A DNA stretch of 64,000 bases from a virus (lineage: Duplodnaviria; Heunggongvirae; Uroviricota; Caudoviricetes): the IMG/VR virus record IMGVR_UViG_2513237368_000009, one strand, 5' to 3'. The stretch's first letter is position 1. Every line of letters begins with the position of its first letter. The position numbers and the translations under genes were made by a program. Positions 6,766 to 60,287 of this stretch are shown in pieces. The notes beneath the pieces are model-generated. The model saw nothing but the letters and a program-made list of their open reading frames with translations, ran no database searches and was not told the DNA's origin.

Positions 6766-8007
6766 ATGCGTAGTTATATAAACAGAAAAGGTAATAAAGT
6801 TGTAGTAAGTGATAAGCATCTTGATGTTGCTATCAGAATAAAAGAGGAACTTCAAAAGACATCTCCGACAAGACGTACATCTTGGGCTGCACATAAACGT
6901 ATGATGCGGAAAGAGGGTTTCTATGACAGTGATACAAACGAAGGATATCGCTGTCTGATTAAAGCTGTACAGAGAAAACGTGGGACTCTACCCACCGCAG
7001 TAAAGCACGTAGATTTAGTTGCGGATAATAAGTTAAAGAGTATCAAGGAAGAAGTCGGAGAGTTGTACTCTTCAAAACTACAACTACAAGCACAAGGAAG
7101 AAATATCAGAAAACTTGTCAGAGCGGTCAATAAGGACGTTCTGTTCTTAGAGGAAATTAAGGAAGCGATTAAAGAGAAAGACTTTGTTAAGCCTAGCTCT
7201 TTCAATAAGTATCGTGCCAATTCCAAAGAAGAAAAAAGGGAAATGATTGTTTGTTTATCAGATTTTCATTATGGCGCTTTAGTAGATATCCCAGAGAACA
7301 AGTACAACACTGAAATTGCCAGAGAGTTATTAAATGAATATGCTCAAAAAGTTATAAAGAATATCAAAAAGGAAAATGTTAAATCTGTCTATGTTATGAA
7401 CTTAGGTGACTTGATTGAAAACGTATATATGAGAAACCAAAATCTATACAATGCAGAGGAAACATTATCAGAACAGATAGTTAATGCTACTGAGTTAGTC
7501 ATAGAATTTCTTGAAACAATTTCTTCTTATGTTCCAGTTAAATATTCAGCTATTGCGGGTAACCATGATAGATTGCAAGGGAATAAGAAGTCAAATCTGA
7601 GTGCAGATCATGCTATCAGAGTAAGTAATAAGATTGTCCAGACGTATGCTAAATATTCAAACAGTAGAGTTCAGTATATAGAAGCTAAGAGAGATTACGT
7701 GCATTGGATCAAGGTTGGCAAATACGTTTTCTGCTTTATTCATGGAGACTTGAATAATCTACAAAAGAAGACGTTGTTAGCCGAGTTAAGCTCAATGTAT
7801 GGAGAACATTTCGTGGCTGTTATTGGTGGTCATATCCACCACTTTACCATGCTAGAAGTTGGCATGAATGAGTATCAAGTTACTTTCGGGAGTATTAAGG
7901 GAATCGATGAGTATTCAGTAGACACTATTGGTTCAAAATCGTCACGTTCTCAGGGTGTAGTTATCGTGGGGAAGGACGAGTATGAGATCAAAAAAATAGG
8001 ATTATAG
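6766..8007 (+). CDS. SbcD/Mre11-family metallophosphoesterase nuclease
   Basis: calcineurin-like motifs LSDFHYG (DxH), GDLIEN (GD), GNHD, GGHIHH. Confidence 0.6.
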   Translation: MRSYINRKGNKVVVSDKHLDVAIRIKEELQKTSPTRRTSWAAHKRMMRKEGFYDSDTNEGYRCLIKAVQRKRGTLPTAVKHVDLVADNKLKSIKEEVGELYSSKLQLQAQGRNIRKLVRAVNKDVLFLEEIKEAIKEKDFVKPSSFNKYRANSKEEKREMIVCLSDFHYGALVDIPENKYNTEIARELLNEYAQKVIKNIKKENVKSVYVMNLGDLIENVYMRNQNLYNAEETLSEQIVNATELVIEFLETISSYVPVKYSAIAGNHDRLQGNKKSNLSADHAIRVSNKIVQTYAKYSNSRVQYIEAKRDYVHWIKVGKYVFCFIHGDLNNLQKKTLLAELSSMYGEHFVAVIGGHIHHFTMLEVGMNEYQVTFGSIKGIDEYSVDTIGSKSSRSQGVVIVGKDEYEIKKIGL

Positions 8008-8981: not shown

Positions 8982-10437
8982 TATGATAAAATCCGAGTTT
9001 TATAAAGAGCTTTTGAAGCATAAAGAGATAGCAGAAAGTCAATTTGTACTTTCTTTGTACAAAAACCCAGATCTCTTTTTCGAGTATGACCTAAAAAGTC
9101 CAGATATCTCGAACGCTTCATGGAGACTTTATTATGGAATCTTAAACGACCTATTAACAAGAAAGAGATTAAAGGTCGTAGATATGATTGCTGTTGAAGA
9201 ATATATTCAATCTAAGTCTGATAAACTTCAAGAGTATTATTCAGCAAACGGTGGTTATGATACGATATCTCGTGGTTCACAAATGATTGAAGATGAAAAC
9301 GTTGATGTTTTCTATTCTGAAATTCAACGATACAAAATCTTAATGAAATTGGTTGAAAAAGGATATCCTATCAAGAACGATTGGAATAAATATTCCAAAA
9401 TGAGGTTGGAAGATTTGTCCGATTATCTTGAAGGACAATTAAGTTCAATATTCTTAGATGCAGATTTTGGAGACGAGAAAGTAGAAAATATCGTAAGTGG
9501 TATTGATGAAATGATTGAAAGAGCCGATTCAGGAGTTGATAGAGGATTGCCTTTAGCATCTCCATTAATGAACAGTGTTCAGAACGGTATGGCATTAGGA
9601 AACATTACAATGTTAGCAGCCAACTCTGGTGTTGGTAAGACCTTCTTAACATTGAACCAATTATTGCCGACACATATCGACTTAGAAGAACCACTTATGA
9701 TCATTGCCAACGAGGAAGACAAGGCAAAATGGCAAAGAGATTTATTGACTTGGCAGATCAACAATCTTCAAGAAGGCGTTACTTTTGATAAGACACGTTT
9801 TAGTCAAGGAAAGTTTGACAAGGAAGAGAAAGCAGCACTAGCTAAAGCGTCAGAATGGTTGAAAAATAAAATGGATAGCGGACTTATTCAATTTGTGAAC
9901 TTGAATAACTTCTCAATGAACAAATCTATTAAATTAGTTAAAAAGTATGCTACTGGTTTAGGTATCAAATATTTTATTATTGATACATTGAAACTGGATA
10001 ACGATGCGAACGCAAATATGTCTGATAATTCATGGTTGTTATTACAACAGAACATGGTTAAGTTGTATAACGTAGTCAAACCAACAAATAAGAATTGCCA
10101 TGTGTGGGTAACCTATCAGATGTCAAAGAACCCTAAAGGTAAATACCTTAGTCAAAATGATTTAGGTATGTCAAAGAATGTTGCCGATGTTGTTTCTTCT
10201 TTAATTCTAGTTCGTTTAATTTCAGAATCAGAAAAAGGAGAAGGAAAAGGCGCATTAAAGGTTAAAGGAATGTCTGGGAAAAGAATGACTTTAAATGAAG
10301 ATCTTGATTACTTTGTTGTATTTTGGGATAAGAATAGACAAGGTTCAACAAGTGAACAGGTTGTATTGCGAGTTAATCGTGGTAGAAATACTGTTAAAGA
10401 CATTGGAAAAGTAAGAATATCACCAGAATATAACTAA
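8953..10437 (+). CDS. DnaB-like replicative DNA helicase
   Basis: Walker A LAANSGVGKTFLTLNQ resembling DnaB AARPSMGKTAF; probable TTG start 8953 after GGAGGG (track start 8899 lies inside upstream gene). Confidence 0.55.
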   Translation: MSEKKNEKNSMIKSEFYKELLKHKEIAESQFVLSLYKNPDLFFEYDLKSPDISNASWRLYYGILNDLLTRKRLKVVDMIAVEEYIQSKSDKLQEYYSANGGYDTISRGSQMIEDENVDVFYSEIQRYKILMKLVEKGYPIKNDWNKYSKMRLEDLSDYLEGQLSSIFLDADFGDEKVENIVSGIDEMIERADSGVDRGLPLASPLMNSVQNGMALGNITMLAANSGVGKTFLTLNQLLPTHIDLEEPLMIIANEEDKAKWQRDLLTWQINNLQEGVTFDKTRFSQGKFDKEEKAALAKASEWLKNKMDSGLIQFVNLNNFSMNKSIKLVKKYATGLGIKYFIIDTLKLDNDANANMSDNSWLLLQQNMVKLYNVVKPTNKNCHVWVTYQMSKNPKGKYLSQNDLGMSKNVADVVSSLILVRLISESEKGEGKGALKVKGMSGKRMTLNEDLDYFVVFWDKNRQGSTSEQVVLRVNRGRNTVKDIGKVRISPEYN

Positions 10438-25847: not shown

Positions 25848-26891
25848 ATGGTAGAAAAATTAGAATTAAAGAAAGTGAAGAAACATGTTAAGAGTGTATC
25901 TCTTGCATATGATTTATTATCTTCAAGAGAATGGACACCTTCAAAAATGTTCAATTTCTTGTATATGAAAGATAAGAACGAGTACACAGAGCAAGAGAAA
26001 GAACAGATTAAGAATTTACTTAGTCCAAACTTTACTCCAACTCTAAGTGATTATTACAATATCGGAAGATACGTTAAGCAATTATTTGAGCAAGATGGTT
26101 ATCCACCACTCCAACAAGCTTATGTTGCGTCTACCGATATTGTTATTAGTAGAGAATACATTGCCAGAGAACATAGTTTCAAGTTACAAGTTGAGATAGA
26201 TTCAATCAAATATGAAATGAGAATAGGTATAAAAATTGTCACGGATTCAGATTATTTTGATGAATATGGATATTTTGTTATCAAACCTTCAGTTAAAACG
26301 AAGGATAGGAACAAAGATCTGCATTACAGAATAACCATATTTAATGTGGTCAATTTATCTGAGTGGGACAAGGACAATAAAGAAAAAACAAAGCGAGAGA
26401 TATTTGATAAATATGACGAACTAAGACATAGCTATTCATATTTCAATCTTCTTAGTAAATGGAGATGGAGTAATAAAATGCTGCAAGGTTCAAAGGGATA
26501 TTCTAAAGAGTTTTACTCAATAGCTAAACAAGTCAAAATACCTTTTTATAGTAAATTTCTTGCAATATTTAGATTCAATATTTTCGCATTTCTGTTCCCT
26601 AGCAGCAATCTTTCAAAATTGTACAAAAGGGGACAGGATATCTTAGCTGAACACAAAGAAGATTACACTGATTGTAGATATTATTGCAATGATATTTCAT
26701 TAAGTCCTTATGTACAGAAGATATCTGATTTACCTAAATCGTTTAAGAAGATTGTCACTAGTGATGCAAAGTATGAGAAAATAGTTGATAGTTATTTAAA
26801 TAAGTTTGAAGATATATTTGAAAAATTATTGGATAACCAAAACGTTTATTTGATACTAGATTCTATTGAATTGAAAGGAGAGAAAGCGTAA
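25848..26891 (+). CDS. hypothetical protein
   Basis: ORF track. Confidence 0.45.
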   Translation: MVEKLELKKVKKHVKSVSLAYDLLSSREWTPSKMFNFLYMKDKNEYTEQEKEQIKNLLSPNFTPTLSDYYNIGRYVKQLFEQDGYPPLQQAYVASTDIVISREYIAREHSFKLQVEIDSIKYEMRIGIKIVTDSDYFDEYGYFVIKPSVKTKDRNKDLHYRITIFNVVNLSEWDKDNKEKTKREIFDKYDELRHSYSYFNLLSKWRWSNKMLQGSKGYSKEFYSIAKQVKIPFYSKFLAIFRFNIFAFLFPSSNLSKLYKRGQDILAEHKEDYTDCRYYCNDISLSPYVQKISDLPKSFKKIVTSDAKYEKIVDSYLNKFEDIFEKLLDNQNVYLILDSIELKGEKA

Positions 26892-27190
26892 TGAGTATTT
26901 TTAATTTTAAGAAAAAGAAGGAAGAAGTGAAACCTAAAGTTAAAACTGGTTTAATTCCAGCAGACAAAGCAAAAGAAATTCTTAATAAAGCCAATAGTTT
27001 AGAAAAATTAACAAAAAAAGACATTGAACTTATTAACGACAGAATAAAGAATCATGCAAAAACTGGTTCAAATAAATTTAGTCTTTTCTATGATACAACT
27101 GAATGTCCTCTTGAAGTGGCTATTTTTGAATTGGAGAAAGCTGGCTATAAAGCTACATTTTGTGAGAGGTATACAGACTTTACTTTTTAG
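26891..27190 (+). CDS. hypothetical protein
   Basis: ORF track. Confidence 0.4.
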   Translation: MSIFNFKKKKEEVKPKVKTGLIPADKAKEILNKANSLEKLTKKDIELINDRIKNHAKTGSNKFSLFYDTTECPLEVAIFELEKAGYKATFCERYTDFTF

Positions 27191-27214
27191 GAGGAATGAG
27201 GAATGGAATTTATT

Positions 27215-28680
27215 TATTTATAGGGTCGGTAACTAAGAAAACTTATGCTTTTAATCGTAAGATGAATTAGTGCCTTGACCGACCAGAATTGTATTCTGTT
27301 ACTTGGTTCTCAATATGCTGAAATTTTGGAGAAAAGCTTGACATCAAAGGAGGTGAACCTGAATGTATCAAGGCCTTAAACTACGGATATATCCTAATTT
27401 AGAACAACAAAAACAAATAGTTGAGAACTTTGGGGCAACTAGATTTGTTTGGAATCAGATGTTGGATATGCAAAGCAAGCGTTATAAAAATAATAAAGAT
27501 TCTAAGTTCTTAAATGGTTTTGCAATGAACTTCTTATTAAGGCAATTAAAAACAGAATATCCATGGTTAAAACAAGCTGAGAGCACCTCACTACAAGACA
27601 CTTGTGAAACTCTAGCTGTAGCTTTCCAAAGATTTTTTAAGAAGCTTGGGGGATATCCTAAATTTAAGTCGCGAAAATTTCCAAAGCAAAGTTTTAAATC
27701 TAAATGTATAAATAACAATGTTAGATTGATTGATAATCATTATTTGAAGCTGCCTAAATTAGGCATTATGAAGTACAGAGGGAAATTCACTGATGACAAA
27801 ATCAAGTCAACGACTATCCAGTTAAGTCCAACAGGCAAGTTCTATTGCGTTTTACTAATTGAGTGTGAAAATCAAACACAATTTAGTAAGACAAATAAAA
27901 CTGTCGGTTTGGATATGGGGATAGCTGATTTAATAATTACATCAGATGCTGTTAAATATCCGACAATTAGGTTTGATCAGATTCTTGCTAAGAAGAAACA
28001 CTATTGGGAAAAACGACTAGCTAGAAGAAGGCTATTAGCACAAAAAGAAATAGCTTGGGATAAACACAACAAAGTCGTTGAACCTAGAGAACTAGCCAAC
28101 TTTAAGAACTATACCAAGGCTAAACAGATGGTCGCTAAATATAGTGAAAAGATAGCTAACCAGAGGAAAGATTATCTTCATAAGATTACAATTGGGTTAG
28201 TTAAAGACTATGACAAAATAGTGATTGAAGATTTGAAAACTAATAATATGATTAAGAATCACAAATTAGCCAGAGCAATCGCTAACCAATCTTGGAGAAT
28301 GCTTAGACTAATGTTGGAATATAAGTGCAAATGGTATGGCAAAGTCCTTAGTGTGGTTAATCCATACAAGACTAGTCAACTCTGCTTTAATTGTGGATAT
28401 GATGATGGTAAACACGAACTAGATATTCGTGCTTGGACTTGTCCTCAATGCCATACACAGCTAGATAGAGATGTAAACGCAAGTAAAAATATATTAAAAC
28501 TTGGTTTGGGCTAAACCTTAGTAAATAGAGTAAACCGCTGTCGAATACTGAAATGTATGAGATAAGTTATGCTTGTTCCTAGAAGCTCGGTACTTTAGTG
28601 CCGACGTAAGTCACACAACAATGAGTACAAGGTTTTCGATACAGCGGGTACAAAATTACCAGAGGGTGACGAGTTTATCA
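27215..28680 (+). mobile_element. IS200/IS605-family element carrying tnpB only (IS1341-like); ends approximate
   Basis: left subterminal hairpin GGTCGGT...ACCGACC (27223-27284); similar TAGTGCC..CCGAC at right end; omegaRNA-like structured 3' region 28515-28680. Confidence 0.5.
27363..28514 (+). CDS. tnpB: TnpB (OrfB) RuvC-like RNA-guided nuclease of IS200/IS605 family
   Basis: N-terminal LKLRIYPNLEQQKQIVENFGATRFVWNQ; C-terminal zinc finger CFNCGY...CPQCHTQLDRDVNASKNIL. Confidence 0.7.
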   Translation: MYQGLKLRIYPNLEQQKQIVENFGATRFVWNQMLDMQSKRYKNNKDSKFLNGFAMNFLLRQLKTEYPWLKQAESTSLQDTCETLAVAFQRFFKKLGGYPKFKSRKFPKQSFKSKCINNNVRLIDNHYLKLPKLGIMKYRGKFTDDKIKSTTIQLSPTGKFYCVLLIECENQTQFSKTNKTVGLDMGIADLIITSDAVKYPTIRFDQILAKKKHYWEKRLARRRLLAQKEIAWDKHNKVVEPRELANFKNYTKAKQMVAKYSEKIANQRKDYLHKITIGLVKDYDKIVIEDLKTNNMIKNHKLARAIANQSWRMLRLMLEYKCKWYGKVLSVVNPYKTSQLCFNCGYDDGKHELDIRAWTCPQCHTQLDRDVNASKNILKLGLG

Positions 28681-28682
28681 CC

Positions 28683-29141
28683 ATGCGCAATCAAATATTA
28701 GATTGGTATTTTTCTGACGATAAGAGTATATTATCCTACATTCATTCAGATAATGCAGATGAAGAGGTTGTTAATGAACTGTATATGAGCTTTGAAAGAA
28801 GATATCGTTTGTCTGATATTATTAATGAATTGCCACAGGATATCATATCTAAGGAAGACACTTATCCTCAATGGGTAGTAAGTGCTGTTAATGACAATGT
28901 AATGGAAAAGATTTGGTATCAAGATGATTACAACGAGATCATTGAGGAAACTAAGGAAAGCAAGGATTACAAAAAGGGTTATGACTCCTTAGTAAATCTA
29001 TTCAAGGAGGAACTCAACGAGAACGAATACAGTGCTGAAAACATTGGTTATCCTAAGAAGATAAACAGTATACAAGAATATGAAAAAGAACATCCATATT
29101 GTTTTATGACTATTGTTGCTCCCCAGAAACGTTCTAGATAA
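28683..29141 (+). CDS. hypothetical protein
   Basis: ORF track. Confidence 0.4.
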   Translation: MRNQILDWYFSDDKSILSYIHSDNADEEVVNELYMSFERRYRLSDIINELPQDIISKEDTYPQWVVSAVNDNVMEKIWYQDDYNEIIEETKESKDYKKGYDSLVNLFKEELNENEYSAENIGYPKKINSIQEYEKEHPYCFMTIVAPQKRSR

Positions 29142-59539: not shown

Positions 59540-59893
59540 ATATAGTTACAAGGCTGCTTTTGAGGTCTATTACCTTGTTCGCAGCATTCAACGGAACTTG
59601 CGTATTCTAATTCAAAAACATGTAGTATTTGAAATGTGACCCACATTACTGATCACCCTCGCACCCTGTAATTATAAAAGAATTAATTTATAGTCGTACT
59701 TTAATCGACTTTTATCCAGCCAATAAATGCAAGTTCTATGGATTCACTCCTAACTTGCAATGCTCAGGGAAGGATTTGCACCTACATAGCCACAATGACG
59801 ACAGATTTACAGTCTGCGGAGTTCTCTAATACTCAGCCCAAGCGTGTTATTCTTATTTATTTGTTTCCAATTTTGAATCTAAAATCTGAGTAC

Positions 59894-60184
59894 GTTTTCC
59901 TTATCTAAAGGTTTTAATCTGACTAAAACGCATGTATGCTAACCATTGCAGTTTTCCCTATCTAAGGATTCTAGTCAAACTAAAACAAGAGCTTTCAATA
60001 CACATTTCAGTCCAGTGTTTTCCTTATCTAAGGATTCTAGTCAAACTAAAACGCTTTTTCGGAATATCCTATCTTGTCTGTAGTTTTCCTTATCTAAGGA
60101 TTCTAGTCAAACTAAAACTACAGTTGGAAAATCAAGTAAGAAGTTACAGTTTTCCTTATCTAAGGATTCTAGTCAAACTAAAAC
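59894..60184 (-). CRISPR. CRISPR mini-array: 5 x 36-bp repeats (consensus on + strand GTTTTCCTTATCTAAGGATTCTAGTCAAACTAAAAC), spacers of 21, 30, 30, 30 nt
   Basis: repeats at 59894, 59951, 60017, 60083, 60149; leftmost repeat degenerate with truncated spacer, so leader inferred at right and transcription on minus strand (repeat then reads GTTTTAG..., type II-A-like). Confidence 0.85.
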
Positions 60185-60287
60185 CTCAAAATATCCTATC
60201 ATCACTTCAAGGCTTCCTAGGAACTCCGAACCATTGTCCAGATATTTACTAGGCTATTATGGATTGATGGAAACTTCCAATCCTAAT

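Follow-up and report, generated by a model that had tools for sequence, protein, structure and literature searches.

What is a gene for a TnpB nuclease doing among the small genes of a tailed phage, and what would its guide RNA recognise? The question is raised by the Caudoviricetes record IMGVR_UViG_2513237368_000009, of which a stretch of 64,000 nucleotides, here called the window, was analyzed. A first-pass annotation had seen in it a TnpB-only insertion of the IS200/IS605 family with an omegaRNA and no tnpA, a core reading that is supported. We consider it very probable that the locus is a recent insertion of a non-autonomous, IS1341-type insertion sequence (IS), that it splits a phage gene, and that its TnpB-omegaRNA complex would recognise the vacant allele of that gene.

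The protein is typical of its family. The 383-aa open reading frame (ORF) that had been picked out as TnpB is present on the + strand, and the N-terminal stretch quoted for it corresponds to residues 8-32. A search against TnpB profiles gave scores above the gathering cut-offs for three Pfam domains, PF12323 HTH_OrfB_IS605 (residues 1-45), PF01385 OrfB_IS605 (166-299) and PF07282 Cas12f1-like_TNB (311-377), and 323 bits, against a cut-off of 100, for the NCBIfam model of the RNA-guided endonuclease TnpB family (NF040570 guided_TnpB); the score with the narrower NF038281 IS200_TnpB model, 359.8, was below the cut-off of 425. The best natural structural match is ISDra2 TnpB (8bf8/8exa/8h1j; E = 2e-55, residues 6-379). 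The RuvC residues, the loss of which had been named as grounds for doubting the assignment, are in place: D184, E289 and D370 align on the catalytic D191, E278 and D361 of ISDra2. The C-terminal zinc finger is also there as described, a CxxC...CxxC motif made up of C341FNC and C360PQC (C341/C344 and C360/C363). With the three Pfam domains, the family model, the RuvC triad and the zinc finger all present, the ORF apparently encodes an active TnpB, its catalytic triad intact, that is neither decayed nor nuclease-dead. There is no second TnpB, IS end or omegaRNA in the window.

The vacant site was reached through the gene on the far side of the element. For the 152-aa product predicted there, a search of 5.8 billion proteins gave three relatives and no more, and the vacant alleles were obtained only through this large protein database and a subsequent look-up of the contigs. 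One relative is an identical protein in a 126.6-kb contig of an L. mali assembly; the other two are 180-aa versions in L. hordei contigs of 125-128 kb. These L. hordei loci are syntenic with the window (a 348-aa gene, a 43/97-aa gene, the 180-aa gene and the same downstream genes) and have no tnpB. In the sister phages L045 and L051 the 180-aa gene opens with ATGGA(A/G)TTTATTTATTTAT, and the vacant site in the L. hordei phages reads ATGGAATTTATTTATTTAT/ACAATAATGAG..., the slash marking the insertion point. Where the siblings' gene starts ATGGAATTTATTTATTTAT/ACAATAATGAGTAC..., the window has ATGGAATTTATTTATTTAT, the element, and then ACAACAATGAGTAC... The insertion point falls inside codon 7 and leaves a stub of six codons, to whose stop codon the element contributes its first two bases; the only start codon remaining downstream is Met30 (28683), from which 152 aa could be made at best. 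Excising 27222-28614 in silico yields an uninterrupted 180-aa frame, and the reconstructed empty allele aligns straight over the junction with both sibling phages. The comparison with the vacant site, the restored frame and the alignment over the junction together argue for a scarless insertion in codon 7, directly beside the transposon-adjacent motif (TAM).

The interrupted gene matches no Pfam family and gives only a weak match to phrog_8899, a PHROG without known function. When the 5-kb neighbourhood was compared with GenBank phages by megablast, the sole match was one of 80 bp to LP65, with no close relative there, and for the flanking 152-aa and 347-aa proteins nothing was found in IMG/VR, or by tblastn in GenBank phages. 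Just upstream, the 99-aa gene at 26891-27190 is broken by a stop in L045-L050 (43 aa called; 5693-5824 in L045) and is intact, at 97 aa, in L051-L054. The stretch of small genes around the insertion seems, from such comparisons, to tolerate loss.

The element itself has close copies on bacterial chromosomes. The two proteins nearest to the TnpB, 95% and 93% identical, are both chromosomal, in a Liquorilactobacillus metagenome-assembled genome and in Lactobacillus sp. UCMA15818, and the DNA shared with those loci (L042/L043) starts at TTTATAGGGTCGG (27217) and ends with ...GTAAGTCAC (28614). Scanning the right-end sequence against species-representative genomes gave nine copies in UCMA15818. 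One of these, L058, matches the window end to end from 27222 to 28614 (1089-2481 in L058) at 99.07%; the 13 differences all lie in 28119-28478 and change three amino acids conservatively, and the left end (LE) and the post-stop right end (RE) are identical. In six independent insertions TTTAT stands directly before AG(G/A)GTCGG, and ...GTAAGTCAC is followed by a flank unique to each. There is neither a target-site duplication nor a terminal inverted repeat. The TAM was unreadable from a messy left-end alignment of relatives 60-77% identical and was settled on the near-identical bacterial copies: TTTAT lies directly 5' of all six insertions and is also present in the uninterrupted gene of L045-L054. 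The boundaries, drawn from the L042/L043 alignment, the L058 copy, the six insertions and the IS-free sister phages (the uninterrupted alleles that the first-pass annotation had hoped to find), confine a real insertion to 27222-28614, instead of the 27215-28680 at first proposed. Because the UCMA15818 copy is ~99.1% identical and has identical ends, the transfer of the element between bacterial chromosome and phage is, judged by sequence, recent. The plasmid collection holds no near match to the element, and the base-composition profile shows no anomaly at it.

An IS with a 99% identical counterpart in bacterial chromosomes could also have entered the contig by misassembly, host IS reads having been joined to phage sequence. 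We regard this as extremely improbable: the junctions are canonical for IS200/IS605 (next to a TAM and without duplication), the phage gene is restored in frame when the element is removed, and the phage copy has 13 differences of its own from the closest bacterial copy. The same junction is also seen in three contigs, a Logan assembly and the 126.6-kb NCBI contig included, which may not be independent of one another.

Two further observations concern the copies. Six of the 13 differences from the bacterial copy are crowded into nine nucleotides, 28425-28433, and are partly synonymous (CGT to AGA); the cluster resembles a short tract converted from another copy of the IS. UCMA15818 also holds TnpB-less derivatives of the element (L055, two copies in L056, L057 and L062). 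These are right-end or omegaRNA-only copies of 113-183 nt, together with a 492-bp mini-element in which LE positions 1-45 are joined to RE positions 943-1393, still after TTTAT; they can be described as PATE-like, solo-omegaRNA copies, and each has its own flank.

Table 1. Coordinates of the element, its parts and the phage gene that it interrupts, in window numbering
Feature	Position	Strand	Remarks
Stub of interrupted 180-aa gene	27203-27223	+	ATG GAA TTT ATT TAT TTA T/AG, read as MEFIYL and stop
TAM, TTTAT	27217-27221	+	Target DNA, outside the element
Complete non-autonomous IS200/IS605 (IS1341-type) element, 1393 bp	27222-28614	+	Left end, tnpB, omegaRNA/right end
LE	27222-27316	+	Identical to bacterial copy in L058
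LE outer imperfect palindrome	27224-27236 / 27267-27284
LE inner hairpin	27242-27247 / 27256-27261		Aligns with LE hairpin of related elements
tnpB, 383 aa	27363-28514	+	Open reading frame in the window
RuvC residues	D184, 27912-14; E289, 28227-29; D370, 28470-72	+	From alignment to ISDra2 TnpB
omegaRNA scaffold/RE	About 28503-28614 at least	+	From covariation; ends ...GTAAGTCAC
Scaffold helix 1	28503-08/28512-17		Spans stop codon
Scaffold helices	28518-21/28579-82; 28528-32/28570-74; 28538-48/28555-66
RE hairpin, last scaffold helix	28587-93/28598-604
Predicted guide, 16-20 nt, ACAACAATGAGTACAA(GGTT)	28615-28634	+	Codons 7-13 of interrupted gene
Remainder of interrupted gene	28615-29141	+	Frame still open

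Both ends carry subterminal imperfect hairpins (LE, 27224-27284; RE, 28587-28604), which may bind TnpA; a candidate TnpA acting in trans would be one with cognate hairpins that match CTCGGTACTTTAGTGCCGAG. The palindrome noticed upstream of tnpB is real, with GGTCGGT at 27225-27231 and ACCGACC at 27278-27284, and so is the subterminal element said to be shared by both flanks, TAGTGCC..CCGAC at 27268-27283 on the left and TAGTGCCGAC at 28597-28606 on the right. In the RE hairpin, five of five pairs covary.

As had been claimed, no tnpA accompanies the element in the window, for which reason the phage copy is classed from its sequence as non-autonomous, IS1341 type, while staying within the IS200/IS605 family. 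A related element in phage CL1 (L003) has a full, divergent tnpA, and the chromosomal Liquorilactobacillus copy (L042) retains, between its left end and tnpB, a divergent 52-aa N-terminal tnpA remnant, 56% identical to the CL1 TnpA. This remnant indicates that the IS lineage descends from an IS605-type element by deletion. It forms part of a 71-aa ORF (4700-4915 in L042) of which the first ~55 residues are the N-terminus of a Y1 TnpA (query 4-55) and the rest is left-end sequence, and it shows the lineage in the course of losing tnpA.

The second component, the omegaRNA, was examined in 16 distinct homologous elements with 60-95% protein identity, aligned over their 3' regions. Folded as single sequences, neither the 3' region nor the left end does better than shuffled sequence, and conserved structure is therefore argued from covariation. 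RNAalifold predicted 29 pairs in this alignment, 20 of them with compensatory changes, and 94.8% of the cells on the consensus structure were paired, as against 72.4% in shuffles. The covariation score was 0.657 against 0.223 for shuffled alignments (0/500 reached the observed value), and 3' partners that had been slid out of register scored at most 0.157. A covariance model (R1) for which 28498-28614 was combined with its homologues has exactly one match in the window, at 107 bits; it also matches directly 3' of TnpBs of 43-50% identity that were left out of model building, and it has no match in the IS-free phage loci. By this comparative evidence, the element encodes at its 3' end a conserved, structured, omegaRNA-like scaffold, the transcription and processing of which are predicted; the scaffold may start further upstream, within the tnpB ORF. 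An omegaRNA had been assigned to 28515-28680, the 170 nt after the stop codon. Its presence is borne out, with a different extent: only the first 100 nt of that stretch are in the element, and 28615-28682 are codons 7-29 of the interrupted gene.

Between 27100 and 28800 no Rfam family, whether omegaRNA or intron, is matched at the gathering threshold or at E <= 5. This bears on a reading in which the insertion is IStron-like, so that self-splicing would remove it from the mRNA and the 180-aa gene would stay functional. The sense orientation within a coding sequence and the open downstream frame would suit such an element. An open frame is expected anyway for a recent insertion, and no group I intron or other Rfam family is matched; the left end is also merely 141 nt long and homologous to ordinary IS left ends. 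Of all the readings considered we find this the least probable.

Two side observations touch the scaffold. In the minimum-energy fold of a read-through transcript the dominant long-range pairing, with a 2-nt bulge, is that of the scaffold sequence CCGCTGTCGAA (28535-45) with TTCGATACAGCGG (28637-49), a piece of the interrupted phage gene that comes shortly after the guide; the conserved helices would have to compete with it. It is probably due to chance, because the phage half is native and occurs in IS-free phages too (L051). In an IMG/VR phage contig (L020) there are three R1 matches, 7156-7286, 7345-7474 and 9837-9944, within 2.8 kb downstream of one TnpB, and these may be a tandem or duplicated omegaRNA.

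The predicted guide is ACAACAATGAGTACAAGGTT (28615-28630/34), directly after ...GTAAGTCAC, and not around 28660-28700, where the first-pass annotation had expected it. In every copy it starts at the first non-shared base past the RE, and a length of ~16-20 nt would follow from the biology of the ISDra2 and ISGst TnpBs (PMC10055086). TTTAT plus the guide reproduces the interrupted gene's vacant allele, and no TTTAT-adjacent match to the guide exists elsewhere in the window. To call the nuclease potentially programmable, as had been done, is an overstatement, since the guide is set by the insertion site and merely spells the gene interrupted there.

The origin of the guide also bears on whether the TnpB has been domesticated, as an active nuclease or in a nuclease-dead, TldR-like form, and is used by the phage against its host or competitors or for regulation. 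TnpB genes do turn up repeatedly in the large phages of Lactobacillaceae, in which one genome often has several, as would suit a useful function. A guide that is the interrupted gene's own sequence fits poorly with such a role, and so do IS ends that are intact and 100% identical to those of a bacterial chromosomal copy. A domesticated gene had been expected to betray itself by occurring in related phages without IS ends; the siblings lack the whole element and keep the vacant site, and the insertion breaks up a gene and does not fill a conserved position. We consider domestication very unlikely. A TldR or other nuclease-dead TnpB, taken by itself, was excluded by the intact RuvC triad and transposon ends.

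In the reading that we favour, the course of events would be as follows. The element very probably came, not long ago, from a chromosome of the Liquorilactobacillus/Lactobacillus type and entered a large Liquorilactobacillus phage of ~126 kb by TnpA-type 'peel-and-paste' insertion directly 3' of TTTAT, without target duplication, at codon 7 of the 180-aa gene, leaving the short stub and, at best, an N-terminally truncated product. Transcription that ran past ...GTAAGTCAC would append the guide ACAACAATGAGTACAA(GGTT) to the omegaRNA, and the resulting complex would recognise and cut TTTAT plus guide, that is, the vacant allele. Such an allele could arise by TnpA-mediated excision or come with a co-infecting, IS-free sibling phage; with a phage that has no tnpA, the sibling route would be the more relevant. 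The occupied site would be immune, as GTCAC stands there in place of the TAM. Cleavage and recombination with an IS-bearing genome copy would then restore or spread the element, while excision or further transposition would need a host TnpA in trans, there being no tnpA in the window.

The sibling route leads to a bolder idea, that the TnpB-omegaRNA acts between phages as an RNA-guided homing endonuclease ('transposon non-restorative homing'). At co-infection, the intact TTTAT-ACAACAATGAGTACAA in the 180-aa gene of IS-free siblings would be cut, and recombinational repair would copy the element and its flanking markers into them; siblings too divergent for repair would be destroyed. Targeting of the donor joint by an IS605 TnpB has been described (PMC10055086), and non-restorative homing by TnpB in phages is theoretical in a review (PMC13565253). 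We think such homing unlikely, although well within what could be tested at this locus, and, if true, it would give the carrier phage drive or a competitive advantage without any TnpA.

Several results weigh against a TnpB-omegaRNA at work in this phage. The guide does not fit the vacant alleles at hand exactly, with a mismatch at position 5 in L045-L050 and 4/20 mismatches in L051-L054, and in the flanks the identity to these siblings is no more than 74-89%. A TAM and a guide could be defined, as the first-pass annotation had suggested doing, and exact searches with both through viral_contigs and metagenome_contigs found no perfect target. A promoter and terminator scan gave no more sites than shuffles and no convincing promoter for the element. 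The folding energy of the 3' region, which had been called highly structured, is unexceptional (z = -0.76 and -0.44 against shuffles). The tblastn search with the full TnpA of the CL1 relative (L003), which found no tnpA, covered the 64-kb half of the ~126-kb genome that is the window, and with no tnpA there restorative homing would rarely be needed.

These results are what makes an inert passenger the live alternative, to which we give a real though clearly less than even chance. The element would have hopped in by accident, recently and without useful expression, its TnpB and omegaRNA having no target, and its sole effect would be to knock out or truncate a dispensable gene. No perfectly matching vacant allele is present in the data searched, the known siblings are divergent, and there is no tnpA in the window and no clear promoter; no function is known for the interrupted gene, and in L045-type phages the gene directly before it is already broken. 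On the other side, the triad and the omegaRNA are fully intact, the LE and RE are as in a multi-copy bacterial element, and the ORF runs in the same direction as the phage transcription unit, which makes read-through plausible. The passenger view differs from the insertion with a functional TnpB-omegaRNA that we favour only in whether the activity is ever exercised.

As to its surroundings, the element lies in a long block of small + strand ORFs downstream of the replication genes. Because it is co-oriented with this transcription unit, its transcription by read-through is plausible from the gene arrangement. The window is phage DNA, with genes for five tRNAs, an endolysin, a ligase, a DNA polymerase, exonucleases and two helicases, one replicative and one Dda/RecD-like. 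Since TnpB homologues are frequent in large Lactobacillaceae phages, where one genome often has several, the presence of a TnpB here is nothing out of the ordinary. The window opens with an ORF (295-1341) that has similarity to tyrosine integrases (phrog_1, E = 9e-18). The CRISPR mini-array mentioned in the first-pass annotation is found as a CRISPR-like array at 59890-60189, with five copies of a 36-nt repeat, GTTTTCCTTATCTAAGGATTCTAGTCAAACTAAAAC, the first of them degenerate, and 30-nt spacers; it lies among tRNA genes and is unrelated to the TnpB element.

By itself the element is routine: it belongs to a known family, and annotation pipelines already have a label for its type. Its value is modest, as a clean natural test case for RNA-guided TnpB homing between co-infecting phages: the locus offers exact boundaries, a TTTAT TAM, a 16-20-nt guide, a 99%-identical bacterial copy, and siblings with one or four guide mismatches. 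To this is added a covariation-supported omegaRNA model for a TnpB clade that is common in Lactobacillaceae and their phages.

Among known systems, the IS1341 group of IS200/IS605 shares with this element the possession of tnpB only, subterminal hairpins, and the lack of inverted repeats and target duplication, and we see no essential difference. The 'transposase' genes of the Lactobacillaceae phages CL1, Lb338-1, 521B, Semele, LP65, Lbab1 and ATCCB are TnpB homologues with 60-68% amino-acid identity and have the same omegaRNA motif 3' of them; these phages have other insertion sites, none is closely related to the phage here, and CL1 retains a divergent tnpA. ISDra2 TnpB of Deinococcus radiodurans matches over its full length, with the RuvC D/E/D residues and the zinc finger aligned, and its omegaRNA, as here, overlaps with both the right end and the 3' part of the tnpB ORF. 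ISDra2 differs in its TAM, TTGAT instead of TTTAT, and in carrying tnpA, and its omegaRNA is unrelated in sequence to the scaffold here, for which there is no Rfam family to compare. For homing between phages, the functional analogy is with the T-even endonucleases SegF, SegB and Mob, the target of which is a relative's allele without the nuclease gene (reviewed in PMC13565253); recognition is by protein in these and by RNA in TnpB. A further counterpart is ISGst2 with its TnpB2 in Geobacillus stearothermophilus (Meers et al., PMC10055086), likewise an IS605-family element with TnpB and a 3' omegaRNA. The same TAM, 5'-TTTAT-3', was shown there by experiment to adjoin the left end, the guide is the DNA past the right end, and the ribonucleoprotein targets the scarless donor joint, as is predicted here; most ISGst2 copies are without tnpA and rely on TnpA in trans. 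The host lineage is another one, the element here sits in a phage gene, and the likeness drawn here is one of features.

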